A DNA stretch of 28,536 nt from an uncultured Fibrobacterales bacterium (GTDB lineage: Bacteria > Fibrobacterota > Fibrobacteria > Fibrobacterales > CAWVXU01), in NCBI GenBank assembly GCA_963934255.1, contig CAWVXU010000030.1:1-28536 (forward strand), written 5' to 3'. Numbering within the stretch: the stretch's first letter is position 1; each line of letters starts with the position of its first letter. A program made the translations under genes and the position numbers. Positions 4,169 to 28,380 of the stretch are shown one piece after another. The notes beneath the pieces were generated by a model. The model saw nothing but the letters and a program-made list of their open reading frames with translations, made no database searches and was not told the DNA's origin.

Positions 4169-5092
4169 TTAGACTTCAGATTGAATATTTACGCCTTTGA
4201 GTACATCTTCAAATTTAGTGAGATCAAGTCCAATAATGATTTCTTTATCTTTATGAGCAAGTTTACTGAGATTAGCAATATGCTGTTGTGACAAGCGCAT
4301 GTTGATTGCTTCCAAACCATGTTTAGAGCTAACAGCAGAGCCAAGTTTTCTGATAGAGCCAGCTGTTGCAGCTGCAATGGCTAAAATTTCAGCAGATTTC
4401 CCCTCGGCTTCGTTGATTCTTTTGGTTCGTTCGCCTTCAGACAAATTAATCATCTGAGCCATGACGCCTTCGGAGTCATTAATTTGAGCTTGTCTTTGCC
4501 CTTCAGCAGTAGAAATCATCGCACGACGATCGCGTTCTGCCGTCATTTGTTTTTCCATAGCAAACCTTACTGAGTCTGGAGGAACAATGTTCTTGACTTC
4601 ATAGCGATGTACTCGTATACCCCAATTTTCTGCAACTTCTTCAAGTACACCGACCACACGAGCAGAAATGAGTTCACGTTCTTCAAAGGTTTTATCTAAT
4701 GAAATCGTCCCGATAACAGCACGAGTAGTGGTTTGTGCTAGTTGAATTGCAGCATAACGATAATTTGTGATTCCATAGCTCGCATGTCTAGGGTCAACTA
4801 CGCTTATATAGATGACTCCATCGACTTCAACTTTAACATTATCGGAAGTAAAACATTCTTGTGGGTCAACAGGAATGGCTTCTTCTTTGAGGTCGAGAGA
4901 GTAGGCAACTCGATCAATGAATGGAAGCAAGATATGAAACCCAGCGCCGAGTGTTGATGAATAATTCCCAAGGCGCTCAACGATGAGTGCTGTTTGGGTG
5001 GGGACCATTCGAATAGATCGAATGAAATTGAATAAAATATAAAGTGCAAAAAGTCCGAACATGACTTTGGCGATATTGTTTAATGCGTCCAT
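4169..5092 (-). CDS. SPFH/band-7 (QmcA/paraslipin-like) protein, copy 2
   Basis: N-terminal TM; IVERLG, PFIDRV, QLAQTT, MEKQMTAER and AEG repeats. Confidence 0.92.
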   Translation of the reverse strand: MDALNNIAKVMFGLFALYILFNFIRSIRMVPTQTALIVERLGNYSSTLGAGFHILLPFIDRVAYSLDLKEEAIPVDPQECFTSDNVKVEVDGVIYISVVDPRHASYGITNYRYAAIQLAQTTTRAVIGTISLDKTFEERELISARVVGVLEEVAENWGIRVHRYEVKNIVPPDSVRFAMEKQMTAERDRRAMISTAEGQRQAQINDSEGVMAQMINLSEGERTKRINEAEGKSAEILAIAAATAGSIRKLGSAVSSKHGLEAINMRLSQQHIANLSKLAHKDKEIIIGLDLTKFEDVLKGVNIQSEV

Positions 5093-6009
5093 TATCTTAC
5101 TCCTCCACTTGTGGCAGCGGTGCCAGCAATAAGTTTTACAATTCCTTTGATATCAGCAAGATCACCAGGAAGTACTGAAACATCAGCAATATCTAGGATA
5201 TTTCCGTATTCGTTGATGAATTGTTCTAAAAGCTGAGTTTTAACAGCCAGAGCGCCACCTGGCTCATTAATTGCATCGGAGATTTCTTGAATCCCTTGAG
5301 CAGTTGCAGTGGCTACTAAAGTGATGGCTTCGGCTTTACCATTGGCTTCATTAATTCGTTTTTGTTTTTCACCTTCTGAGATATTGATTGCATGCATTCT
5401 ATCACCTTCAGAGACTTTGATACGAGCTTCTCTTTCACCGGATGAAATAGTGACTTCTGCCCTTTTGGAACGCTCAGCTTCCATTTGTTTTTCCATCGTG
5501 TCCATGACAGTTCTTGAAGGCGAGATATTTTTAAGTTCATATCGTAGCACTTTAATGCCCCAAGAGCTTGAAGCTTTATCAATTTCGCGGACGATTTTTT
5601 CATTAAGGGTTTCTCGCTCAGAAAATGTTTGGTCAAGAGTGATTTTGCCTAACTCAGATCTCATGGTTGTTTGAGCCAAATTTACAGCCGCGGCCTTGTA
5701 GTTACTAATACCATAACTTGCTTTATGAGCATCGATGACCTTGATATAAACAAGTCCATCAACTTCAACTTGAATGTTGTCACTAGTAATACAAGCTTGG
5801 CTAGGAACATCCAAAACACGCTCTCTCATCTCGCGAACATAAGCAGCGTTATCAATGAACGGAATCATGAAATGAAATCCTGGCTTAAGAGTTTCGACAT
5901 ACTTGCCGAGACGCTCTTTAATAATCTCTTCTCTCATTGTGACAATGATAAAGGTTTTCTTTATGAAAATGATCAAAAAGATCATGATAATGGCAAAGAC
6001 AAACCACAT
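5092..6009 (-). CDS. SPFH/band-7 (QmcA/paraslipin-like) protein, copy 1
   Basis: N-terminal TM; ERLGKY, PGFHFMIPFID, NLAQTTMRSELGK, WGIKVLRYE, MEKQMEAER. SD AAGGAG upstream. Confidence 0.93.
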   Translation of the reverse strand: MWFVFAIIMIFLIIFIKKTFIIVTMREEIIKERLGKYVETLKPGFHFMIPFIDNAAYVREMRERVLDVPSQACITSDNIQVEVDGLVYIKVIDAHKASYGISNYKAAAVNLAQTTMRSELGKITLDQTFSERETLNEKIVREIDKASSSWGIKVLRYELKNISPSRTVMDTMEKQMEAERSKRAEVTISSGEREARIKVSEGDRMHAINISEGEKQKRINEANGKAEAITLVATATAQGIQEISDAINEPGGALAVKTQLLEQFINEYGNILDIADVSVLPGDLADIKGIVKLIAGTAATSGGVR

Positions 6010-6043
6010 AATAACTCCTTATTTGTTGGTTTAAATACTTGGT

Positions 6044-6499
6044 TTAAATGTTTTTATCACTTAGTTTTTTCACAACCCAAGTGATGTTGTGACGATCAAT
6101 AATTTCAACGATATCTCCCTTTTTAAAAGAGGATGTATCTTGAGTTGTGGCGATCCAGTTAGCCCCAGAATAAAATATTTCTCCAGTTTGTTCTTTAAAG
6201 TCTGTGACTACTTTGACATGAGTCCCAAAGGCATCAGAGTCTTCATCAAAGTGACCCTTAATTAGATCCCTTGAAAAAAATGAACGAATCACGAAAATCC
6301 CAATAAAACTTGTCAAAATGGACAATATTGTCCACCATACAAAGACATCGTATAAGCTAGTTATCCATTGAAATTGATAAGCGAGTCCTACTGATATTGA
6401 GCTGAGGCCAACACAAAAAGATATGCCACCTGGGGTGATTAGCTCTAATAGGATAAGTATGGTGCCAATAATAAATAGCGTAATGGATAGTGCTTCCAA
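6044..6499 (-). CDS. NfeD-like membrane protein (short form)
   Basis: Three hydrophobic helices (LILLELITPG) followed by an OB-fold-like tail (GEIFYSGANWIA...KKGDIVEI); directly upstream of the SPFH genes. TTG at 6499 chosen because AAGGGG precedes it. Confidence 0.85.
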   Translation of the reverse strand: MEALSITLFIIGTILILLELITPGGISFCVGLSSISVGLAYQFQWITSLYDVFVWWTILSILTSFIGIFVIRSFFSRDLIKGHFDEDSDAFGTHVKVVTDFKEQTGEIFYSGANWIATTQDTSSFKKGDIVEIIDRHNITWVVKKLSDKNI

Positions 6500-6573
6500 A
6501 GTATGCCCCTTTGTGACTGAAAAACTAGTTAAATCCCTGATTATTCGCGACTTTCTCAATTCAAAGAGTTGAC

Positions 6574-9886: not shown

Positions 9887-9925
9887 CAGTTTTTCAATTA
9901 GAATATTCTTAAATATAATTTGCCT

Positions 9926-10954
9926 ATGAAACTTTCTCCTACACTTTCTTCGCTTTCTATTTTATGGGTCCTGACTATAGGTTTTGTTAGTTTTTCATAC
10001 AGCCTAGAAGAGGTGAGCGGAGCCAACGCCACTTTAGAAACAATGCCCTCAGCTCAAAATGCAGGACTTGGAGCAATTCGTTCTAGTGCGGAACATTATT
10101 TAGGTGACGGTGGTTTTGATCCGACGTCTATTCTCTCAATTCAAGGACATCAGATCGAACTGGCTCATTCAGAAGAATTCGGTGGTGGAAGTTACGACTG
10201 GATTGCTTGGGGCGGATTTGTAGATAGCACCCATCAATCAGTGCTGAGTCTTCAGTTTTCAAGATACTATTTAGGTGATATCAAAATCACTGAAGAAGGC
10301 CCAATCTACGAAGGTACAGATATTCCACGTCAAGATATATCAGATTATGTGCTCACGGGGGTTTGGGCGACTAAATACCGCTTTTTGGAATACGGTATGA
10401 ATTTCCACACTTTATACCGTCAACATACTCAAGAAGGAGTGGGTTTCAGACTTGATGGTGCTATTTCCTCAAATTGGCTTTCCAACTATCGAACCGCTCT
10501 CATATTCCAAGGTTTTAGTAGCTCAGCCACCAAATGGGAGTCTGATCAACTTGAATATAGCCCGTTGGAAATCTTTATGACCCAAAAATGGAGTCAACAT
10601 TTGCCTTTTTTCTATGGCAGACTGAGTTTTTTATGGCAATCTGCTGGCTTTATACACAAAAGACCTAATCGACTCTTAAGCGAAGGCCGCGATGGTTTGA
10701 ATCAAAATTTTGGAGATTGGCTCGGTGGTTCACACTTGGGGACTGAATTTCATCTAGATAACGGTGTGATTGTCAGATCTGGTTTACAAAACGCTGATGA
10801 ATTTAAAACTTGGACTGCTGGGGTGGGGGTGAAATTGTTAAGTCGTTTTCAGGCTGATTATGGCATGCAATCGCATTCAGAACTCGGTAGGATTCACAGA
10901 GTGTCCTTATCTTATTTTATTGAGCCGCGAGTTGATAAACTTAAATTCAAATAA
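9926..10954 (+). CDS. PorV/PorQ (UPF0164)-like outer-membrane beta-barrel protein
   Basis: Signal peptide; PSAQNAGLG resembles the a-r-x-x-g-m-G motif; amphipathic strands; C-terminal DYGMQSHSELGRIHRVSLSY. TATAAT at 9914-9919 precedes ATG 9926. Confidence 0.65.
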   Translation: MKLSPTLSSLSILWVLTIGFVSFSYSLEEVSGANATLETMPSAQNAGLGAIRSSAEHYLGDGGFDPTSILSIQGHQIELAHSEEFGGGSYDWIAWGGFVDSTHQSVLSLQFSRYYLGDIKITEEGPIYEGTDIPRQDISDYVLTGVWATKYRFLEYGMNFHTLYRQHTQEGVGFRLDGAISSNWLSNYRTALIFQGFSSSATKWESDQLEYSPLEIFMTQKWSQHLPFFYGRLSFLWQSAGFIHKRPNRLLSEGRDGLNQNFGDWLGGSHLGTEFHLDNGVIVRSGLQNADEFKTWTAGVGVKLLSRFQADYGMQSHSELGRIHRVSLSYFIEPRVDKLKFK

Positions 10955-11010
10955 GTTCAAATAGCCCCTAAAATTGTTAGATTTCAATGAGCAATCTCAA
11001 AGGGCGAACA

Positions 11011-11757
11011 ATGTCAGATATACCATTAAAAAATTATCGTGAAGTCGGTTCATTTGATTTGTTGAGCCCTCCTCTAACGCCGCTTAATTTGGTGGACGGC
11101 CAATTACTCAATGTTCAATTAAGTGAATTGATTGAATCTGGTGCTCATCATATTGTTTTGGATTGTTCAGGGTTAGAGTATCTATACTCAGATACGCTTA
11201 CTGTACTAGGGCACGCTCACGAAGTTTTATTACTAAACGAGGGTACTTTGGGTGTGATGACGGCCAATGATAGTATTGCGAGTTCCATTCGCAGTTCACA
11301 CTTGGCTTCTATTTTGACAATCTACCCAGTGGAAACCGACTTAATTCAAGCTTCAATGAAAATGATGGCTGGAGCCATGCCTGAAGTTGCAGCTGATGGC
11401 CATGAAGACGACCACACTTTAGAAGTTTTTGAGGAAGTCTTTGGTGACGGTTTTGAAAATGTAGAAATGTCTGAAGGTCACATTGAAAAACCTGCTGAAG
11501 AGCCTGTTGAGACCCAAGAATCTACTGAGTTAAATGAAGTTGGAAATAGTGAAAAAAACACTGCAGCTATTCAAATACTTCAAGTGGAAGAAGAATATTT
11601 AGAAAGTTCTTCGGAAGTTTCTAAACAGATGAATGATAGTGATTCAAATACTTATGTGAGGCAACCTAAAAAACTATCATTCTTCCCATGGTTGTTAATT
11701 CTATTCATTATTCTGATTGGACTTTCCTATATGGCTTATAACCGAGGTATGGTTTAA
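11011..11757 (+). CDS. STAS-domain protein with acidic linker and C-terminal TM anchor
   Basis: HIVLDCSGLEYLYSDTLTVL resembles the STAS motif; Glu-rich middle; hydrophobic tail FFPWLLILFIILIGLSY. Start could also be 10987. Confidence 0.65.
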   Translation: MSDIPLKNYREVGSFDLLSPPLTPLNLVDGQLLNVQLSELIESGAHHIVLDCSGLEYLYSDTLTVLGHAHEVLLLNEGTLGVMTANDSIASSIRSSHLASILTIYPVETDLIQASMKMMAGAMPEVAADGHEDDHTLEVFEEVFGDGFENVEMSEGHIEKPAEEPVETQESTELNEVGNSEKNTAAIQILQVEEEYLESSSEVSKQMNDSDSNTYVRQPKKLSFFPWLLILFIILIGLSYMAYNRGMV

Positions 11758-11762
11758 AAATT

Positions 11763-12803
11763 ATGGCCCGTCGAAGTCAATATCAACCCAAAAAACCATC
11801 AAAATCTACACGCAGTCAACATGGGCGCAGTAGTCACGGATCTTCTGATAAGTCAGGGATAAAGATTGGCCGTTGGGTTCTTTTGATTTTAGTGCTCTTA
11901 GGTGTGTTTAAATATTTTGGCGGAAATTTCAACACGGGAGGAATTGACAGTGGTTCTTCTTATGTTCAGGTTGCAAAATCTTCTTTGGAAATAGATTTAT
12001 CTTCAAAAAATGACACACAACCCAATCAAAAGCAAGAAGAATTCAAAGGTGGATTAGAAAAGCAAATCACACCAGACCTCTGGCGACAAAAGAGAGTGCA
12101 ATTAGGGCAAGGCTTTGTCGTAGATAAATACTTTATACCAAATCAAAAAAAGCAGTGGGAATTGATTTTCCAAAAGAATGATTCATCAGTCTTTTTTAAT
12201 GACACCTTGAGTGATTTCTTAGGTGAAGTATGGGCATTAAGTAAACCAGGTCAAAAGGTCGTTTTGAAGCTATTAAAAAACTCAAAAGGTAAGATTCAAG
12301 CTTTTGATTGGAAATCAGGTAATTATAATGGTACTTGGTATGAACAAGACTCAACCTGGTTAAATAAACGCGGGTGTATTCGAGGTAAGATTTGTCCATT
12401 TGAACCACTTGTAGATTCTAGAGTTCAAATAGCCAAAGGACTTTATAAAAAAGAGTTGTGGCGGTCAGACTCTACGATGGAAGTGAAATCTCCGATAGAA
12501 GGCTTTTTAACCAAATATGATAATATACCCAAAAAAGGAAGATTATTGCAAATTGAAAATGACGCGGGTGAAAAGGTGATCATACTGGGGTTGGGTAATG
12601 TTGCTGCGGGTCTGCATGAGGGCTCTAAAATACACGCTGGTATGAATCTAGGGACGCTTTTACATCAAAAGAAAACCCTTGAAATAGAGTACTTCAGCCA
12701 AGGGATAGCTAAATATTTAAGTAAAATACTGTCTCAGAGGATCTCAAAAAAAGAAATTGAAAAACGTCAAAAGAAATTAAGTGATCTATTAAGCCGCGGA
12801 TGA
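11763..12803 (+). CDS. Membrane-anchored protein with degenerate M23/LytM domain
   Basis: Basic N-tail and one TM; C-terminal VKSPIEG...GRLLQIEN...LHEGSKIHAGMNLG...TLEIEY follows the M23 pattern but lacks HxxxD and HxH. Confidence 0.6.
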   Translation: MARRSQYQPKKPSKSTRSQHGRSSHGSSDKSGIKIGRWVLLILVLLGVFKYFGGNFNTGGIDSGSSYVQVAKSSLEIDLSSKNDTQPNQKQEEFKGGLEKQITPDLWRQKRVQLGQGFVVDKYFIPNQKKQWELIFQKNDSSVFFNDTLSDFLGEVWALSKPGQKVVLKLLKNSKGKIQAFDWKSGNYNGTWYEQDSTWLNKRGCIRGKICPFEPLVDSRVQIAKGLYKKELWRSDSTMEVKSPIEGFLTKYDNIPKKGRLLQIENDAGEKVIILGLGNVAAGLHEGSKIHAGMNLGTLLHQKKTLEIEYFSQGIAKYLSKILSQRISKKEIEKRQKKLSDLLSRG

Positions 12804-13978
12804 AAATATTTATGAACAAAATCATGAAAACTAAACTGAATGTCATGTTGAAATTTTTGATTTTAAGTGTCACTTCACTTGTAGTTTCTTGCAGTGAGCC
12901 TGATACTTTAACTGATTTTGATTTTGACACTGATGAGTTAAATGGATACTATTTAGGTGCTGTCCTAGATTCTAATAGATTGATTCATTCAAGACAGTTT
13001 GATCTTAATATTGAACTTCAAAATTTATCCTATTTCTCAGATTGTTTGCTCAATAATTTGGAATTTCAAGAATTTAATCTGTCATCAACAAGCGATGTTT
13101 TTTCTGCTTGGATTCACTTAGATTTAGAGGGCGACTTAAATTCAAATTGCCCTATTCAAAAAAGTGTAAACTCTAAAACATTTGTATTATCAGCTTCTGA
13201 ATTACCTAGCCAAGATAGTTTAATCATTTGGGGCTTAAATGGCTATACCGAGGATAAAGAAGGCAGATTCACAGGCCCCCGTGATAGCGTGGCAGTTGAC
13301 ACAATTCTCCTGTTGAATGGAGATTATAATTCCTCAAATTATTTGTTTGCCATTGACTCACAATCTTTGCCAGTGAATGTGTACAATAGGCGCGGTGTGA
13401 TTCGAGCTTTACTTAAAGACTCTTCAGCTGTGTTTGAATTTGAATCCTACACCTCCCAATGCCCGGCTTCGAAGCAAAATAGGAAATGTGAAGTGGAAAT
13501 TGACACGTTGGACTTTTTGAGATATTCTATTAGGGACTCAATTAAGGATAGTGTTTCTGTAAAAATCAAAGCTGATACCTTACAAAGAGTTTTCAAAAAA
13601 AAATGTCAAGATGGAGCGAATTATTGCAATGACCTTGAGACTTGGAAGTTAAATTTTTCAAAGAGCGATTCACTAGTTGAACTCAATCAATATCAAACAA
13701 TATTCATTGAAAAATTACCTCCATGTGAATCGTTGAATTTAATTCAATCCCATAGTACCGAGAATTATCCCAAATCAGAAAGCAAACTAGGGCCTTCTCG
13801 TAATTATTCATTTGAAAGAGAACTATTTGTGAAAGATTCAAATTTAGAGAATTGTAAAAGTACAGAGCACTACTATGGATATAGCTACGAACAAGACTCT
13901 GTTTTTATCGAACAAGATTCCCTTAAGGTTCTTTGGGGGCTTCTACAAGACTTAAAAAGATTATCAGATGCTCCTTAA
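12800..13978 (+). CDS. Hypothetical lipoprotein
   Basis: Lipobox-like LVVSC after a hydrophobic stretch; several further Cys; overlaps both neighbours. Real start may be a later ATG. Confidence 0.65.
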   Translation: MKIFMNKIMKTKLNVMLKFLILSVTSLVVSCSEPDTLTDFDFDTDELNGYYLGAVLDSNRLIHSRQFDLNIELQNLSYFSDCLLNNLEFQEFNLSSTSDVFSAWIHLDLEGDLNSNCPIQKSVNSKTFVLSASELPSQDSLIIWGLNGYTEDKEGRFTGPRDSVAVDTILLLNGDYNSSNYLFAIDSQSLPVNVYNRRGVIRALLKDSSAVFEFESYTSQCPASKQNRKCEVEIDTLDFLRYSIRDSIKDSVSVKIKADTLQRVFKKKCQDGANYCNDLETWKLNFSKSDSLVELNQYQTIFIEKLPPCESLNLIQSHSTENYPKSESKLGPSRNYSFERELFVKDSNLENCKSTEHYYGYSYEQDSVFIEQDSLKVLWGLLQDLKRLSDAP

Positions 13979-19789: not shown

Positions 19790-20788
19790 TTAGAATGACA
19801 AGTATTTTTTGCCAGCACCATCAGGGTTTTTTACCAAAAGATGAGAGATTTTGAAGCTTGAATTGAATTTGAATGAGACTCTGGTCGAACAATCTTTTTC
19901 AGTATCAAAGCGAACACAACCTTTAGAAATTTTGGCAGTATTTGCGATTTCAGAACCATCTTGGCCTATAAGAGTAAAATGTTTTTTAGAAAGCTTAGTT
20001 GAATTACCTGAAGTATTCCAGAGTTGAACTGCACCCCTTAGAGATTTTTTGCTGTGACTGACTTCACCTTTGCGAAAAGCAATAACATATTGGTTAACAT
20101 CAATGCCAGGGGCTGGAGAGACACCATTTACATCTGGACCCCAGATTAGAAAGTTATTTAGGTTTTTCTTGCGAATTTTAACAAGTGCTTCTTTAATAGT
20201 GGCATCTGTTGGTAGGAGAACTTCTCCAGCAAGAAGGTAATACTCAGTTACCACAGGGTCGTCACTTCCATTTGCACGGCCTAGAGTAAGCTTAGAATAT
20301 GCAGCTTCTGCATCAGCTAGTGCTTTGTTGGCTTCTATAGTCTTGATAGATTGTTTCTTAGCAAACTCAACAGCAGAGCGAAGAAATTTTAACCCGGAAG
20401 TTTCCTGTTGGTAGTCATCCATGCCAAGCTTTTCATTACCGGCTTTAATCACAACCTCAACATACTCGCCCACAACCTCTTGTTTTTTGGCGCGATTGAG
20501 ATATTTAGGAATTTCTTCAAAATAAGTCAAAACAATGCCTTGAGTTACATCAGTTTTTGCTGCTTTTGCAAAAGAACGGATCAAAGTAAGAGAGTAGTTG
20601 TCGTAAAATTCGTCTGAAATTGCTCCAGAATCTATTCTAAGTTGTTTTTGGTACAACATCATTGCGTTTTTAAGTTGCCCTTTTTTGAGCTGTTCGTCGC
20701 CCATGCCTTCTCTTTTGGGCTTACAAGCTATCATAATTAGTGATACAGCGAGTAGACCTGGAAGTAAAATTGCTTTCAATTTCATCAT
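19790..20788 (-). CDS. Hypothetical lipoprotein
   Basis: Signal with LIMIAC lipobox; helical-looking N-half and beta-rich C-half with a Cys pair; GAGG upstream. Confidence 0.7.
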   Translation of the reverse strand: MMKLKAILLPGLLAVSLIMIACKPKREGMGDEQLKKGQLKNAMMLYQKQLRIDSGAISDEFYDNYSLTLIRSFAKAAKTDVTQGIVLTYFEEIPKYLNRAKKQEVVGEYVEVVIKAGNEKLGMDDYQQETSGLKFLRSAVEFAKKQSIKTIEANKALADAEAAYSKLTLGRANGSDDPVVTEYYLLAGEVLLPTDATIKEALVKIRKKNLNNFLIWGPDVNGVSPAPGIDVNQYVIAFRKGEVSHSKKSLRGAVQLWNTSGNSTKLSKKHFTLIGQDGSEIANTAKISKGCVRFDTEKDCSTRVSFKFNSSFKISHLLVKNPDGAGKKYLSF

Positions 20789-21559: not shown

Positions 21560-21827
21560 AATTGCTCCATTTCGATGAATTCTTGATGGTTTGAATATAA
21601 TTTCTAAGCAAATAATAAGTGGGGTAAAGACAAGTTTAAAGGGTAAAAATCTTAATTTGGTATGTCATATGGACAAATCGTTGTTTATTTTGAGTAAATG
21701 ATGAAAAAAAGGTGAACAAATGGCAAAAAAAGACCGATTTCCTTTGATATTTTGAGTGTTTTCTCCTAAATTTCAAGGGGAATGGGAGACTTTAAGTCGC
21801 AATTCCATCAATGATTGGAGAATGTCC

Positions 21828-22781
21828 GTGAATTTTATGCCCGAAAATATTAGTACTTTCGGCCAGCAAATCGATGATTTGACTGTGTTGATCACCATAT
21901 TTGGTGTGATATGCTTGACCCTGGCTGAAGGCACATTGTTCATTTTTGCAATAATATACCGCAAGAAAGAAGGTGGAAAGGCTGCCTATATCCCTGGTAA
22001 AGCTTTTGCTCAGCTTAAATGGGTTCTTATGCCATTATTTCTGATTATCATATTGGACGAATGGGTCTCTATTGAAAATGCAGACCCTTGGCAAGAGATC
22101 AAAGTTGACCGACCTACTGAAGGTATTCAGATTGGGATTACAGCTCAACAATTTAATTGGGTTTTCCATTACCCAGGCAAAGATCAAATTTTGTGGAATG
22201 AGAATGACACTAAGAACCCAGATGTGCTTGTTATTCCTATCAACACAAACATACTATTTGACTTACAAGCAAGAGACGTGCTGCACTCTTTTTGGGTTCC
22301 TTCACTTCGCTTGAAACAAGACGCAATTCCAGGCCGAATTATCAAGGGATGGTTCAATGCAACCAAAGTAGGCGAGTATGATATTGCCTGTGCTGAGATT
22401 TGCGGAACAGGACATAGTCAAATGTCTGCAACTCTTAAGGTTGTTTCAAAAGCTGATTACGCAATTTTCCTAGAAGAGTCTTCTAAGAAAAAAGTAACTG
22501 GTGAAGACATTGTGAAGATGAAAGGCTGTACTGGCTGTCACAATGCAGTTGGACCCGCAAAAGTCGGACCGACTTGGGCTGGTATTAATGGCGCTAAAAA
22601 AATAATTATTCGCGATGGTAATGAAGTGGAAATCATATCTGATGAAAACTACATTCGCGAATCAATTCTAAAACCTAATGCCGCAAAGTCTGTTGGATAT
22701 GAAAATGCTGTAATGCCTGCTCAAAATCTAACTGACAAAGAACTTGATTTAATCGTCGATTACTTAAAATCGCTGAAATAA
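21828..22781 (+). CDS. coxB: Cytochrome c oxidase subunit II with fused cytochrome c (caa3 type)
   Basis: Two TMs; CuA ligands DVLHSF and CAEICGTGHSQM; heme c motif CTGCH with distal MP. GGAG at 21817-21820 favours GTG 21828 as start. Confidence 0.93.
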   Translation: MNFMPENISTFGQQIDDLTVLITIFGVICLTLAEGTLFIFAIIYRKKEGGKAAYIPGKAFAQLKWVLMPLFLIIILDEWVSIENADPWQEIKVDRPTEGIQIGITAQQFNWVFHYPGKDQILWNENDTKNPDVLVIPINTNILFDLQARDVLHSFWVPSLRLKQDAIPGRIIKGWFNATKVGEYDIACAEICGTGHSQMSATLKVVSKADYAIFLEESSKKKVTGEDIVKMKGCTGCHNAVGPAKVGPTWAGINGAKKIIIRDGNEVEIISDENYIRESILKPNAAKSVGYENAVMPAQNLTDKELDLIVDYLKSLK

Positions 22782-22793
22782 GGGGAAATTGAA

Positions 22794-24482
22794 ATGTCAC
22801 ACAATCAAAGCTTTGTGAGCAAGTACTTATTCTCGATGGATCACAAGACTATTGGGGTTCAGTACCTACTTGTTGGTTTGTTCATGTCTCTTATAGGAGG
22901 CGGACTGGCGTTTGCATTCCGGATGCAACTCGCGTTTCCAGGTGTCGATTTGCCACTTCTTGGTGAAGTAACGGCAGATAAGTACAATATTTATATCACT
23001 ATGCATGGCACGATTATGATTTTCTTCGTAGCTATGCCGATACTGTTAGCTGCTTTCGGTAACTTATTGATTCCACTGATGGTCGGCGCTGATGATATGG
23101 CTTTCCCAGTTCTTAACATGCTGTCTATTTGGACATTTGTTGCTTCTAGTATCATTCTTATTGTTTCTTTCTTTGTGCCTGGTGGTGCTTTTGCTGGAGG
23201 GTGGACAGCTTATCCACCACTCTCTGCTAATGCCTATCCTGAACAAATTGACTTCTTTGGAACGATGGGTGGCCACTTATGGCTCATTGCCATTGCAGTT
23301 GAATTTGTTGCATTCTTAATGGGTGGTATTAACTTTATCGTCACCACTTATAACATGCGTGTTAAAGGTCTTGATTGGTATAGACTTCCTGTGACAGTTT
23401 GGATGCTTTTAATTGCCTCACTTGTCTTTATGTTCTCTGTAGGACCGCTTATTGCAGGAGCATTTATGCTTTTATTTGATCGTACTATCGGGACTGGATT
23501 CTTTAACCCAGCTGCTGGTGGTGACCCGATCTTATTCCAACATTTGTTTTGGTTTTTCGGTCATCCAGAGGTTTATGTTGTGTTACTTCCTTCACTAGGG
23601 TTTATCGCTGAGGCTCTGACTACATTCTCCCGTAAGCCGCTATTTGCTTATAAAGCGATTGTGAAGTTCACCATATTTGCTGGTCTTCTTTCCTTTGTTG
23701 TTTGGGCTCATCACCAGTTCATCGCAGGGATTGATCCTCGCATGGCAAAATTCTTCTCCTTTACGACCATTGTTATTTCGATACCATTTGCATTTATCAT
23801 TTTTTCAATGATCGCTACCCTCTTTAAAGGTCAGATAAGTTTCAAGACACCTATGCTTTTTGCACTTGGTTTCTTAACAACTTTCCTTATCGGTGGTGTC
23901 ACGGGTATTTATCTAGGTGCTTCAACATTTGATATATATGCTCATGACACTTACTTTGTGATTGCTCACTTTCATTACGCTATGTTCCCACCGGTTATTT
24001 TTGGTGGTCTGGTAGCTATCTACTATTGGTATCCTAAGTTTACTGGTCGTATGATGAACGAGAAACTAGGAATAATTCACTTTATTGGAACATTCATCGG
24101 TTTTAATGGTGTGTTCTTCCCACTTTTCTTCTTGGGTATGGCCGGTCAACATCGCCGTATATTCAACTTCGAGAATTGGGAATCGCTTTCGACTCCGGGT
24201 CTGCAAAATATCCGTATTTTTGCGACAGTTTCTTTGATTGTTATGATTGTTTCCCAACTCCCTTTCGCTTGGAACTTTATACGTTCATTGAAAACGGGCA
24301 AGGTTGCTGGGAAAAATCCTTGGAATGCAAATTCGCTTGAGTGGACTGTACCATCACCTCCACCTCATGGAAACTTTGCTAAAATACCAACAGTTTATCG
24401 GGGGCCATACGAGTATTCAAATCCTGAAAATCCCGATCAAGATTACTGGCCTCAAGATGTCCCAGGAAAGGGAGATAAATAA
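22794..24482 (+). CDS. coxA: Heme-copper oxygen reductase subunit I, A1-like motif, atypical proton channels
   Basis: MHG, WTAYPPL, FGHPEVY, WAHH, HDTYFVIAHFHY and the RR pair are all present. Confidence 0.97.
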   Translation: MSHNQSFVSKYLFSMDHKTIGVQYLLVGLFMSLIGGGLAFAFRMQLAFPGVDLPLLGEVTADKYNIYITMHGTIMIFFVAMPILLAAFGNLLIPLMVGADDMAFPVLNMLSIWTFVASSIILIVSFFVPGGAFAGGWTAYPPLSANAYPEQIDFFGTMGGHLWLIAIAVEFVAFLMGGINFIVTTYNMRVKGLDWYRLPVTVWMLLIASLVFMFSVGPLIAGAFMLLFDRTIGTGFFNPAAGGDPILFQHLFWFFGHPEVYVVLLPSLGFIAEALTTFSRKPLFAYKAIVKFTIFAGLLSFVVWAHHQFIAGIDPRMAKFFSFTTIVISIPFAFIIFSMIATLFKGQISFKTPMLFALGFLTTFLIGGVTGIYLGASTFDIYAHDTYFVIAHFHYAMFPPVIFGGLVAIYYWYPKFTGRMMNEKLGIIHFIGTFIGFNGVFFPLFFLGMAGQHRRIFNFENWESLSTPGLQNIRIFATVSLIVMIVSQLPFAWNFIRSLKTGKVAGKNPWNANSLEWTVPSPPPHGNFAKIPTVYRGPYEYSNPENPDQDYWPQDVPGKGDK

Positions 24483-25063
24483 TGTCAAATGAACACGATT
24501 TAGGTCCTATCCCAAGAGAAATGGGTGGAATGCCATTGGGCCGCAGTGCTATGTGGTGGGTCATCGCTTCTGAGGTTGTCATTTTTGGCGCCCTAGTAGC
24601 CTGTTTCTTGCTTTACAAGTGGCGTCACCCCGAATGGAGTGAAATGGCGGCGATGACTTCAAGTACCCTTGGAGCTGTCAACACCACGATTCTTTTGACA
24701 TCGTCTTTCTTCGTAGTCATGGCCCATGACTACGCAACTCGTGGTGATCGTAAAAACGTAGCACTATTTATGGGTCTGACTATCCTATGTGGATTTGGTT
24801 TCCTCACAGTCAAATCAATAGAATATGCAACTGAAATTTCTCATGGTTTTACAATGTCTTCACATTTGTTTTGGTCATTTTATTTTTGTTTGACTGGTCT
24901 TCACGGACTTCACGTTATTGCAGGGATGATCGCTTTAGCTTGGGTAACTTTTGCTGCTGAGCGAGGTCAACAAATGCACCGTATTGAACTTGCTGGCTTG
25001 TACTGGCACTTTGTTGACTTAGTGTGGATCTTCTTGTTCCCTCTACTTTACATTGCGAAATAA
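24482..25063 (+). CDS. coxC: Cytochrome c oxidase subunit III (short form), copy 1
   Basis: IASEVVIFG, NTTILLTSS, LTGLHGLHV, GLYWHFVDLVW. Confidence 0.92.
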   Translation: MSNEHDLGPIPREMGGMPLGRSAMWWVIASEVVIFGALVACFLLYKWRHPEWSEMAAMTSSTLGAVNTTILLTSSFFVVMAHDYATRGDRKNVALFMGLTILCGFGFLTVKSIEYATEISHGFTMSSHLFWSFYFCLTGLHGLHVIAGMIALAWVTFAAERGQQMHRIELAGLYWHFVDLVWIFLFPLLYIAK

Positions 25064-25074
25064 GGAATTAATAT

Positions 25075-25491
25075 ATGTCAGATACCGAAAGACCAATTAA
25101 AAAAGTACCAAACTATCATGGGCACCCCCCGTACTTCTATATATTTGTTACGCTCATCGGGTTAATGATTGCCACAATCATACTTGGGTTTTGGGAACAC
25201 AACACATACGTGATATATGCGGTTTATGCCATTGCTGTTTTTAAAGCTTACCTTGTGATGTTCAAATTTATGCACCTATCTTGGGAGCCTAAGATGGTCT
25301 TTATTTGGATTGCAGGTGCTGTTTTTTCATTAGGTATTTTTATCGCAGGAACAGCGGTGGATTTTTTATCTCCGCGTGAACCAGTCAAAATCCTATGGAT
25401 GCAAGCTAATACACCATCAGGTTCTGAGCTGATTAGCCATCCTAAAGGTTGGGATGTTCCGCCTTCTAAAGAAAAAAAAGCCGATCACTAA
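25075..25491 (+). CDS. Cytochrome c oxidase subunit IV family protein
   Basis: Three TMs; KAYLVMFKFMHLSWE matches the KA..V...FMHL..E motif. Confidence 0.85.
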   Translation: MSDTERPIKKVPNYHGHPPYFYIFVTLIGLMIATIILGFWEHNTYVIYAVYAIAVFKAYLVMFKFMHLSWEPKMVFIWIAGAVFSLGIFIAGTAVDFLSPREPVKILWMQANTPSGSELISHPKGWDVPPSKEKKADH

Positions 25492-25639: not shown

Positions 25640-26212
25640 ATGAGAACTCCAAAAAACAGATTACAAAATGCCCAAATGGGAATGTTTTTCATCCTAGCCA
25701 CCGAGCTTATGATGTTTTTGGCATTAGTTTCAGCGTATATCGTCATTCGCGCAAATGTTCCAGACTGGCCACCTATTGGTCAACCAAGATTACCTGCTGG
25801 TGAAACAGCACTAAATACACTTGCACTCCTACTAAGTGGGTGGACGTTTTATAAAGCAATCAAAATTTCCAAAGGAGTCAAAGACACCTTTGAAACTGAT
25901 TTTACTGAAATTCAAAACTCAGTGGTTAAGTGGATTTGGATTAGTTTTGCTTTAGGCCTATTCTTTGTGGCATTTCAGGGCTATGAGTGGGTGAAGTTGG
26001 TCTCCTATGGTCTGACGATGGGTTCAGGTGTTTATGCAGGCTTCTTTTATACTATTATAGGCTGCCATGCTATTCATACTCTAGCTGGGCTAGTTTTATT
26101 GTTGATTCTCGGTTTGAAGCCGAGTTATATTAAGCTCCATACCATCAAGTGGTATTGGTATTTTGTGGTAGGATTATGGCCTCTCTTATACGTTTCTGTT
26201 TATTTAGTTTAA
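25640..26212 (+). CDS. Cytochrome c oxidase subunit III family protein, copy 2
   Basis: GMFFILATELMMF, NTLALLLSG, FQGYEW, FFYTIIGCHAIH, YWYFVVGLW. Confidence 0.88.
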   Translation: MRTPKNRLQNAQMGMFFILATELMMFLALVSAYIVIRANVPDWPPIGQPRLPAGETALNTLALLLSGWTFYKAIKISKGVKDTFETDFTEIQNSVVKWIWISFALGLFFVAFQGYEWVKLVSYGLTMGSGVYAGFFYTIIGCHAIHTLAGLVLLLILGLKPSYIKLHTIKWYWYFVVGLWPLLYVSVYLV

Positions 26213-26442
26213 TTTTAGCTTCTCAAGCTATGGCATGTTCGGTTTGTTTTGGTGGACAAAGCGAGCAGGTTCAAGATGCTTATATCTATATCACGATCTT
26301 ATTAAGTGTGGTACCTTTAATTGCTATTACGGTGTTCATTTTTTGGTGGCGCAAAAGAGCAAAAAAATTACAGCTATTGGAATCTCAAAACAATCAAAAC
26401 AATCAAAATAATTCAAATGATTCGGAGATAAAAGATGCCTGA
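26176..26442 (+). CDS. Small exported CxxC membrane protein of the cox cluster
   Basis: Signal-like N-terminus ending AMA, then CSVCFG, one TM and a basic stop-transfer (WWRKRAKK). AGGA precedes ATG 26176. Confidence 0.7.
   Translation: MASLIRFCLFSLILASQAMACSVCFGGQSEQVQDAYIYITILLSVVPLIAITVFIFWWRKRAKKLQLLESQNNQNNQNNSNDSEIKDA
26386..26412 (+). repeat. In-frame 9-bp tandem repeat (QNN x3)
   Basis: CAAAACAAT CAAAACAAT CAAAATAAT. Confidence 0.8.
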
Positions 26443-26833
26443 AATTGTCACTGGGCTTAATGCTCTTATCGTTGCTGTCTTATTACCTGCTCTATGGGCA
26501 GCTCGTATCGGTAAAATAGACCTTCATAAAAAACTCATTACTGTGGCTCTTGTGGCTTCAACTATATTGTTAGGGCTTTGGTTTTATGAGAAATACATTA
26601 ATGGCTCAACTGTCTATAAAAGTTTAAGTAATTCTCGTGGTGCCAAGATATTTTTAGCGACCCACATCTTCTCAAGTGTCGTTGAATTGCCATTAATAGT
26701 ATGGGCTGTGATTCTGGGTATTAAGGGTAAAATCGCCAAGCATCGTAAGATAGCTCGCATCACTGCATGTATTTGGCTTTATACCTCAATAACGGGCATA
26801 ATGCTTTATTTTATGACTGACTATTCAATCTGA
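26435..26833 (+). CDS. DUF420 / CtaM-like oxidase assembly membrane protein
   Basis: LNA, HKKL, FLATHI, HRKIAR and WLYTSITG motifs; cox cluster context. Confidence 0.85.
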   Translation: MPEIVTGLNALIVAVLLPALWAARIGKIDLHKKLITVALVASTILLGLWFYEKYINGSTVYKSLSNSRGAKIFLATHIFSSVVELPLIVWAVILGIKGKIAKHRKIARITACIWLYTSITGIMLYFMTDYSI

Positions 26834-26834
26834 T

Positions 26835-27305
26835 ATGAATGATTTGAATTACGAGAACGTTCCTGAAAAATTGGAGCGTACTTTCAAGGTATTAGCTGGA
26901 GTCCAATTACTTATGGGTACCGGAGTATTAATTGTGGTTCAAGCTTTCCAAGTCGAACAAGCAGATTTAGGGGCAGCAATTCTTAAAATAGGAATTGCCC
27001 TAGCTCCGATTGTAGCCGCTACGAGTGCTGTTCTTAGCCGTATCGGATATAAAATACTGCTTCGTAAATATTTCAATCAAGTGCATAAAAAGACAATACC
27101 TCCATCTAGCTTTAAGTCCAAATTTGAGAAGTTATATATCGCTCGTTTGGTCTTGCTTGAAGTTGCCACAATCTTCAGTCTAGTCTTGTGCCTATTGAGT
27201 GGTGACCAAAACCTACTAGCTATTTCATGCTTTTCATTTTCTGTATTTATTTTGACAAAACCAACTTTGGTGAGGCTAAATCAAGAGCTTCAATCTAACG
27301 CCTAA
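26835..27305 (+). CDS. Hypothetical membrane protein (about 4 TM)
   Basis: 156-aa hydrophobic ORF starting 1 nt after the DUF420 stop. Confidence 0.65.
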   Translation: MNDLNYENVPEKLERTFKVLAGVQLLMGTGVLIVVQAFQVEQADLGAAILKIGIALAPIVAATSAVLSRIGYKILLRKYFNQVHKKTIPPSSFKSKFEKLYIARLVLLEVATIFSLVLCLLSGDQNLLAISCFSFSVFILTKPTLVRLNQELQSNA

Positions 27306-28380
27306 ATTGTTGAATTAAATTTACGGAACACAACAGAAGTACACAGCCCCAAACTTGATGGGCCAGCGCTGTATGCATTTGAGTATGAGTTAATACGGTC
27401 AAAATCCCTAAAATAAATTGTCCAGAGACGGCTATCGCAAGATAATTGAGAGCTGTTTGGTGATGACGGTAATGATTCAGGTCCCCCGCACTAGCTATGT
27501 GAAGTGCGTTTAAAGCTTTTTTACCAAAATACCATAATCCAAGAATACCGAAAAACAGCACCCATGCAAACGTTCGATGGATAAAGTGGACGGTAGTAAT
27601 ATCAAAGACTAGACTTCTTAGGAACGTAGGCGTCCCAAACATGTGAGGTGGAATCAAATAACCGAACATTTTCGGGAAATCAGTAAATACATAGCCTGCT
27701 TTAAGTCCCGCATTGAGGCCCCCATAAGCAATTTGAAAAAGAAGAAGTGCGGGTAAAATGACGCTTGAATTTACAAGCCAAGTAGGAATTGATTTATTAA
27801 ACCCTTTTTGTTTGGCTGGCCAAAGTTCAGTCATTGCAATCCAAACTAGGTAGGATACTAAAATAAAAGCAGTACATAAATGCGTAGTGAGTCTAAGGTG
27901 AGAAACATGGGGAATTTTAACCAATCCACTTTTTACCATATACCAACCGATAAACCCTTGAGTTGCTCCTAAGGCAAAGGCAAGAAGAAGTTTTAAGTTA
28001 AGTTTACTTTTGAATTTGATAGTCTTTCTGATCATAAAATAAAACCAAGGCAATGCAAAACACATACCAATAAGCCGACCAAGCATTCGGTGTAAGTATT
28101 CCCACCAAAAGATTTCTTTAAATTGTTCAACGGTCATGTCATAATTGATCAGCTGATACTCTGGAAATTTCTTATATGCCTCAAAAACTTCAAGCCAAGC
28201 GGATTGACTCAGAGGGGGTAGATTCCCAATCAAACTCCAGTCAACCATTGAAAGTCCGGCACCCGAAAGCCTAGTAGCCCCACCCAAGACAACCATAATC
28301 ATTATTAAGAAGGAAACTGCTCCAAGCCAAATGACCACGGGCGTGTTTGGTTTTTTTGTAACATTCTCCATAATGACCAC
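27295..28380 (-). CDS. ctaA: Heme A synthase (COX15-like, type 2)
   Basis: GGATRLSGAGLS, EYLHRMLGR, GWYMVKSGL, RLTTHL, HFIHR, AHQ. Start may be ATG at 28371. Confidence 0.93.
   Translation of the reverse strand: MVIMENVTKKPNTPVVIWLGAVSFLIMIMVVLGGATRLSGAGLSMVDWSLIGNLPPLSQSAWLEVFEAYKKFPEYQLINYDMTVEQFKEIFWWEYLHRMLGRLIGMCFALPWFYFMIRKTIKFKSKLNLKLLLAFALGATQGFIGWYMVKSGLVKIPHVSHLRLTTHLCTAFILVSYLVWIAMTELWPAKQKGFNKSIPTWLVNSSVILPALLLFQIAYGGLNAGLKAGYVFTDFPKMFGYLIPPHMFGTPTFLRSLVFDITTVHFIHRTFAWVLFFGILGLWYFGKKALNALHIASAGDLNHYRHHQTALNYLAIAVSGQFILGILTVLTHTQMHTALAHQVWGCVLLLCSVNLIQQFRR

Follow-up and report, generated by a model that had tools for sequence, protein, structure and literature searches.

A naturally K-channel-less clade of A-family cytochrome oxidases with an invariant glutamate at the top of the D channel

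Why the reductive phase of A-family oxidases should depend on a K channel of its own is a long-standing question that has been studied almost only through inactive mutants. The window analysed here (the whole 28,536-nucleotide stretch of DNA, contig CAWVXU010000030.1 of an uncultured Fibrobacterales bacterium) raises the question for a natural enzyme. Its subunit I gene, coxA (22794..24482, + strand; 562 aa), encodes an A1-type GHPEVY active site with six histidine ligands, and the K channel is absent. An initial annotation had placed I335, F332 and A272 at the positions of K362, T359 and S299 of R. sphaeroides and had suggested either a distinct oxidase subfamily that delivers protons by another route or an enzyme with altered chemistry or pumping stoichiometry. 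The codons concerned are GCT at 23607 (A272), TTT at 23787 (F332) and ATC at 23796 (I335), and the translation of 23562-23810, within the 562-aa frame, is HPEVY...ISIPFAFIIFSM.

The three placements are borne out by gap-free alignments to solved structures. A gap-free HMMER alignment to mycobacterial CtaD puts I335 on the lysine and F332 on the threonine of helix VIII, and HMMER likewise aligns A272 with the helix VI serine. R. sphaeroides numbering was taken from the 6pw0 alignment, bridged via locus L037, and throughout helices IV-IX the query number equals the R. sphaeroides number minus 27 (I335=K362, F332=T359, A272=S299, Y261=Y288, E259=E286). The active site had been described as undamaged, and the sequence agrees: the ligands H71, H257, H306, H307, H392 and H394 and the cross-link tyrosine Y261 of GHPEVY are present, E259, the arginine pair and the Mg-site residues H384 and D385 are all retained, and the six histidines and the tyrosine are kept in 146 of 146 sequences of our first clade set. 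Helix VIII of the query (residues 322-343) has no Lys, Arg, His, Asp or Glu, and the query residue at L390 (R. sphaeroides numbering) is not ionisable either. In the AlphaFold2 model of subunit I (pLDDT 86, pTM 0.90; low confidence at 372-391), helix I begins at residue 17, helix VIII is one unbroken helix (315-342), and the fold matches A-family subunit I structures with TM scores of 0.83-0.87. Geometric statements on the channels rest on alignment and the cited papers.

The K pathway is described as running through a subunit II Glu, a helix VI Ser, the Lys, the Thr and the Tyr (PMC8361435), and the query has lost the first four of these five. The loss goes beyond the residues first noticed, in that it reaches subunit II and helix VII and is accompanied by a remodelled D channel. 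Subunit II is encoded by coxB (21756..22781, +; translation may in fact begin at a later ATG) and has a CuA site and a C-terminal cytochrome c domain of the caa3 type (TIGR02866 CoxB above the cut-off, PF00116 and PF00034, CuA and CxxCH motifs); its best PDB match is T. thermus caa3 2yev_B. The K-entry glutamate of this subunit, E101, is Q86 here (22011-22013), and only 3 of 25 clade sequences keep it, whereas 58 of 59 other COX2 rows do. In subunit I, A272 stands at S299 (23607..23609, +), where 9 of the 264 listed clade sequences have Ser. F292 (23667..23669, +) stands at A319, a residue of the helix VII wall that serves as a marker of K-channel width (PMC10341450), and forms a bulky plug where most of the clade has T, S or A. 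The segment F332-A-F-I335 (23787..23798, +) takes the place of T359 and K362, F334 being Glu in a derived subclade. On the alignment, the canonical K pore is closed by hydrophobic residues in both core subunits, so that protons would have to arrive by another route, and the idea of a distinct subfamily with such a route thereby gains support.

The unusual residues themselves are all that would suggest an assembly error or a decaying gene, and we give this explanation practically no weight. A cluster representative at 99% identity (P0001; 18 member sequences, 4 contigs) has seven residue differences, none at 272, 332 or 335, and the 264 listed homologues share the pattern; since the loss is common to all of these, it is not an artefact of assembly. 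An independent contig carrying 14 differences runs across 23525-24002 and, with 40 of 147 differences listed, bears neither for nor against the three codons. Among the listed differences, 30 of 38 strain differences in three genes are synonymous, including all seven in coxA. The operon is intact. Values of dN/dS lie between 0.045 and 0.23 in six of eight pairs, the other two being saturated at synonymous sites. The clade is under purifying selection and the gene is not decaying.

The clade comprises 264 sequences with more than 47% identity to the query among the matches listed, with locus and protein near-duplicates kept. It is monophyletic with a support of 100 in a tree of 110 selected rows (quick IQ-TREE, SH-aLRT support only, midpoint root), and the substitutions first seen in the query are common within it. 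The sister group (support 90) retains the lysine, which makes the K loss derived. None of the 264 listed members has K362 (M in 89, I in 72, V in 23, L in 23, others in the rest, with one His) and none has T359 (F in 167, I in 81); D132, N139, E286 and Y288 are present in every one of them. Named members come from Fibrobacterota, Bdellovibrionota, Myxococcota, Gemmatimonadota, Verrucomicrobiota, Spirochaetota, Bacteroidota, Actinomycetota and SAR324. They include the isolates Pelagicoccus sp. SDUM812002 and Puniceicoccaceae K14, and marine SAR324 and Opitutae genomes carry the enzyme. NCBI often names these proteins 'cbb3-type', and oxygen affinity and energy yield may therefore be mis-assigned in genome surveys. 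With its hundreds of K-less sequences from nature and a single invariant candidate for compensation, S197E, the clade is a natural test of why A-family oxidases normally need two channels.

That candidate lies in the D channel. The query keeps D132 (D101 of its own subunit I), N121, N139, S142, N207 and E286 (R. sphaeroides numbering) and the lower part of the channel is invariant; in the upper part, S197 is E170, S200 is A173 and S201 is F174, and the last two changes could narrow it. E170 (23301..23303, +; bovine A153) is a new glutamate of helix IV at the channel's upper end. Glu occupies this position in all 264 listed clade sequences, and an acid occupies it in none of 133 K-retaining sequences. 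S197 is among the residues that define or line the D channel (PMC10341450), and bovine residue 153 is described as a buried helix IV residue that separates the D channel from a polar water cavity and lies 10 A away from E242 (PMC7341133). Besides E197, the features common to nearly the whole clade are a Ser at A356 and a subunit II TM2 Asp (24 of 25). The Ser, S329 in the query (23778..23780, +), sits one turn above the lost T359 and is found in 264 of 264 listed members versus 1 of 133 K-retaining sequences. Gln replaces M335 in 249 of the 264. Helix X is also remodelled beyond the heme a ligand (23979-23993, +, residues 396-400): S425 is F, I or V, and 227 of the 264 listed members have Pro at position 426. 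Changes at 423-425 have been tied to D-pathway proton transfer (PMC4550891).

The reading that we favour, with a little less than even confidence, is a caa3-type O2 reductase in which all substrate protons come through the D channel, E170 aids the reductive phase and fewer protons are pumped. On this view an intact caa3-type cytochrome c oxidase, descended from K-retaining A1 ancestors and with its K channel closed in both core subunits, would be supplied by alternative complex III and would reduce O2 to water as a terminal oxidase. In the O-E-R steps, the two protons that usually travel via K362 to Y288 would come up the D channel, E170 (S197) would act as a second protonatable site beside E259 (E286) and enable delivery in the reductive phase, and the serine at A356 would replace the T359 hydrogen bond near the cross-linked tyrosine. 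As a single channel with one carboxylate more than usual would carry all protons, fewer than 1 H+/e- are probably pumped, and an altered pumping stoichiometry of the query, one of the initial suggestions, is plausible on its sequence. We put forward only tentatively that this is a naturally evolved D-only A-family oxidase in which the S197 carboxylate replaces the need for a K channel, a helix IV acid having been found independently in other K-less lineages. If true, such an enzyme would mirror the K-only B and C families, and the main respiratory enzyme of some marine bacteria would have a proton stoichiometry unlike that implied by its 'A-family' annotation.

A different possibility is that the K route has been rebuilt, with protons entering from the side of helices VIII/IX and subunit II and passing to Y261 via E58, D101 and S329/T324/T325; derived members would have added E361, E390 and a subunit II His, and pumping could stay normal. 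The intramembrane acids of subunit II in the query are E58 (TM1, 21927) and D101 (TM2, 22056), and their counterparts in the clade are frequent (of 25 sequences, 24 have the TM2 Asp and 16 the TM1 Glu), as is a TM2 His (17 of 25). E390 occurs in 167 and E361 in 80 of the 264 listed members, and the serine present in all of them is at A356, which borders the K channel (PMC10341450). Against this, 85 of the 264 listed members, the query included, have neither glutamate, so the K-side glutamates cannot be a general fix, and E361/E390 was rejected as a clade-wide substitute for the lysine. Furthermore, F292, F332, F334, I335 and A272 surround the pore in the query, and the subunit II Asp would lie in the periplasmic half, judging from its helix position. 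We regard a rebuilt K route as doubtful.

Equally to be weighed is the uptake of some chemical protons from the periplasm, through a cavity above E170 or from subunit II D101 over T325/S329 to Y261. The result would be an O2 reductase in which coupling is lost in part or altogether, with little energy gained but fast, gradient-insensitive turnover. The clade has specific polar residues on the periplasmic side (Q335 in 249 of 264 listed members, subunit II D101), and engineered S197D, which by a second-hand account lost pumping and took protons from the periplasmic side (PMC7341133), would fit as well. The support that S197D lends is limited by its second-hand source; moreover, the cytoplasmic entrance and the asparagines of the D channel are invariant, and full uncoupling would presumably be costly for the three genomes in which this is the sole oxidase detected (G000, the host genome, and G046 and G047). 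We therefore consider periplasmic uptake unlikely. Two further changes on that side are a Gln after the CuB His pair (HHQF; 23709-23720, +) and a His/Gln in place of the Pro preceding the arginine pair (24150-24158, +). The HHQF motif we take to resemble ba3.

Returning to the D-only reading, the clade amounts to a natural double change of two R. sphaeroides mutants, with K362M in 89 of the 264 listed members and S197E in all. Engineered K362M blocks proton delivery in the reductive phase (PMC10341450) and engineered S197D is uncoupled according to the second-hand account (PMC7341133), whereas the natural combination is maintained by purifying selection. The query is an especially clean case, since it has no K-side glutamates and its oxidase is apparently the only one of its genome.

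Acids in the D channel also recur outside the clade. Ten D-channel positions were scored in the 176 of 181 rows that have intact active sites (FastTree), and an extra acid was found in 1 of the 133 rows that retain the lysine and in 18 of the 43 K-less ones, the rows not being independent of each other. Three further K-less branches carry one: E197 in P0262, D197 in P0203 and E207 in a group of 19 rows. This recurrence is suggestive of convergence, short of proof, and since 25 of the 43 other K-less rows have no extra acid at the ten scored positions, the lysine can evidently be lost without one. We also noted a separate K-less lineage (P0194, P0168, P0254, L095 and relatives) of long or fused proteins, mostly K362Q, which have N207E and, close to position 198, another Glu; L095 lies in the same Pelagicoccus genome as the clade locus L011. 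Two other K-less proteins, P0148 and P0248, have Trp at E286, and P0158/P0161 have Asp there.

How does the enzyme relate to known oxidases? Compared with canonical A1 aa3/caa3 enzymes (R. sphaeroides 1M56/6PW0, P. denitrificans 1AR1/7ATE, T. thermus 2YEV, mycobacterial CtaD 6ADQ), subunit I has 36-40% identity and shares the fold (TM 0.83-0.87), the six histidines, GHPEVY with E286 and Y288, the lower D channel, the Mg site, the arginine pair, a CuA subunit II and subunit III. It differs in that K362, T359, S299 and subunit II E101 are gone, in S197E, S200A, S201F, A356S, M335Q and P480H, and in having two short subunit III genes. Because the K channel of A1 enzymes is missing, we file it as an A1-derived variant and not as a canonical A1 member. 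Its sister group in the tree (support 90) resembles subtype a-III, for which a COX3 doublet (PMC6431628) and a K channel ('yes' in Tables S1/S3 of PMC8239418) are recorded; the Methylobacterium/Microvirga/Piscinibacter K-retaining rows were taken as a-III from their residue fingerprint. Two COX3 genes likewise follow coxA in the clade (doublet in 25 of 26 loci). In contrast to the query, the a-III rows keep K362, and the query operon has coxD between its two coxC genes.

K-less A-family enzymes are, as a class, already in print, and our observation is not unprecedented. Many such lineages, A1 included, were catalogued from sequence by Degli Esposti in 2021 (PMC8239418); Oligoflexia/Bacteriovorax, Elusimicrobia, bacterium HR19 and Methylacidiphilum are among the K-less A1 lineages. 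Like the query, these have the A1 motif, a hydrophobic residue for the Lys and often a lost subunit II Glu. Rows with Bacteriovorax-like (L049) and Elusimicrobia-like (P0125) fingerprints have Ser at T359, no E197 and a place outside the clade, and where the Oligoflexia K-less fingerprint has S291, F354, S351, N357 and D292, the query has A, I, F, S and E. At locus L049 itself, a Planctomycetota genome has two oxidase operons that are divergent and lie back to back; one retains the lysine, while the other is K-less, bears the Bacteriovorax-like fingerprint and has an Asp in TM2 of subunit II. HR19 may belong to the clade, since the clade member P0057 matches 8 of 10 positions of the COX1 fingerprint given for its row in the 'KC channel' A1 subclade (best other K-less row, 6 of 10); HR19 was not among the named matches listed in a homologue search from P0057. 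The clade may thus already have one catalogued member. The '2TM' oxidases of acidophilic iron oxidisers (Acidithiobacillus) and Thioclava, in which K354 is Ile or similar, are K-less too and resemble the query in the loss of COX2 E78 and the retention of the D channel (bioRxiv 2020.03.01.968255), but they keep T351 and have extra N-terminal helices (PMC8239418), whereas the query has lost T359 and its helix I starts at residue 17.

Whether the family had already been characterised was left open by the initial annotation. In the literature searched, which largely excluded subscription journals so that a prior description is possible, we found no biochemistry on the clade or on an S197E lineage; the K-less state as such had been catalogued. 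What our analysis adds is threefold: S197E is invariant in the clade, it recurs in K-less branches elsewhere, and one member lacks K-side acids in subunit I and is seemingly the sole oxidase of its genome.

The initial suggestion of altered chemistry fared less well. A mainly different activity, such as NO reduction, peroxide reduction or O2 scavenging, would do without a K-dependent reductive phase. The clade enzyme is usually not the sole oxidase of its genome: further PF00115 matches are present in 23 of 26 other clade genomes, as might suit an additional HCO with another role. K362M enzymes still turn over with H2O2. They stall in the reductive phase (PMC10341450), which would also fit. 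However, the three CuB histidines and the cross-link tyrosine with no FeB Glu are the O2-reductase pattern, and NO reductases of the HCO type are described as having no cross-link Tyr and Glu or otherwise altered metal ligands (PMC11214002); with Y261 and three CuB His present, the query does not have the pattern of any of the c/q/e/b/s/g/nNOR types. B-family (ba3) membership is excluded by the retained D-channel residues and by the match strengths (E ~1e-9 for ba3 chains vs 1e-128 for the A family). A heme A synthase gene, ctaA/cox15 (27295..28380, -; PF02628 E 1e-81, NF045570 below the cut-off), is adjacent and convergent with the operon. Given the intact O2-reductase active site and this genome context, altered chemistry is improbable. 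From the active-site pattern and the status of sole detected oxidase in G000, G046 and G047, the enzyme very probably reduces O2.

The host genome (2.67 Mb, 92% complete) has a single PF00115 match, this coxA. Cytochrome bd, NirS, NirK, NosZ and the cytochrome b of bc1 were not found in it, although at 92% completeness absence is unprovable; the lack of a detected NirS, NirK, NosZ or other oxidase likewise speaks against a mainly different chemistry. Genes for alternative complex III (multiheme c, 4Fe-4S, NrfD, ActD-cytochrome c) are clustered on contig C69, and a ctaB-like gene, matching below the cut-off, is on C25. The gene before the latter may be SCO-like, to judge from its CxxxC motif, and has no family in Pfam or NCBIfam. 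Two genes with weak family matches, G000:C55:14992-16488 with five CxxCH motifs and G000:C33:20483-21346 with two, are possible periplasmic electron carriers. Clade genomes G046 and G047 each have one HCO match and no bd match. Just upstream of the clade operon of locus L002, on the same contig, is a weak and partial match to cytochrome bd subunit I (G042:C134:711-1424).

Sequencing runs that contain this DNA are marine (four runs from four studies compared). In related genomes the enzyme is scattered: one same-family and two same-order genomes with a match have a K-retaining A2-type enzyme instead, and among 151 same-class genomes 40 have a match, 6 of them at 60% identity or more. A patchy distribution of this kind would be expected from lateral transfer.

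The operon runs coxB, coxA, coxC1, coxD, coxC2, a CxxC protein, DUF420 and one ORF with no assigned family. Downstream of coxA are coxC1 (24482..25063, +; PF00510) for a short subunit III, coxD (25075..25491, +; PF03626, TIGR02229 above the cut-off) for subunit IV, and coxC2 (25640..26212, +; PF00510), a second short subunit III gene that follows coxA in 25 of 26 clade loci. Directly after coxC2 comes a gene for a small single-TM membrane protein (26149..26442, +) with an A-C-x-x-C-F/G motif behind a signal-like segment. The Pfam and Atlas searches gave no family for it; 17 of 25 clade loci have a clear homologue and one more has a doubtful match, and it is a candidate copper chaperone or extra subunit. 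The DUF420 membrane protein gene (26435..26833, +; PF04238) follows. Signals in promoter and terminator scans were at chance level. Contigs from the RNA libraries of two studies overlap portions of coxB, coxA and coxC1; this does not prove that the genes are transcribed. Elsewhere in the window, several ORFs of 156-392 aa have no Pfam match above the cut-off (9920-13978, +; 19790-20788, -; 26835-27305, +), and 4169-6559 (-) holds two tandem SPFH/band 7 genes and an NfeD gene, an ordinary arrangement.
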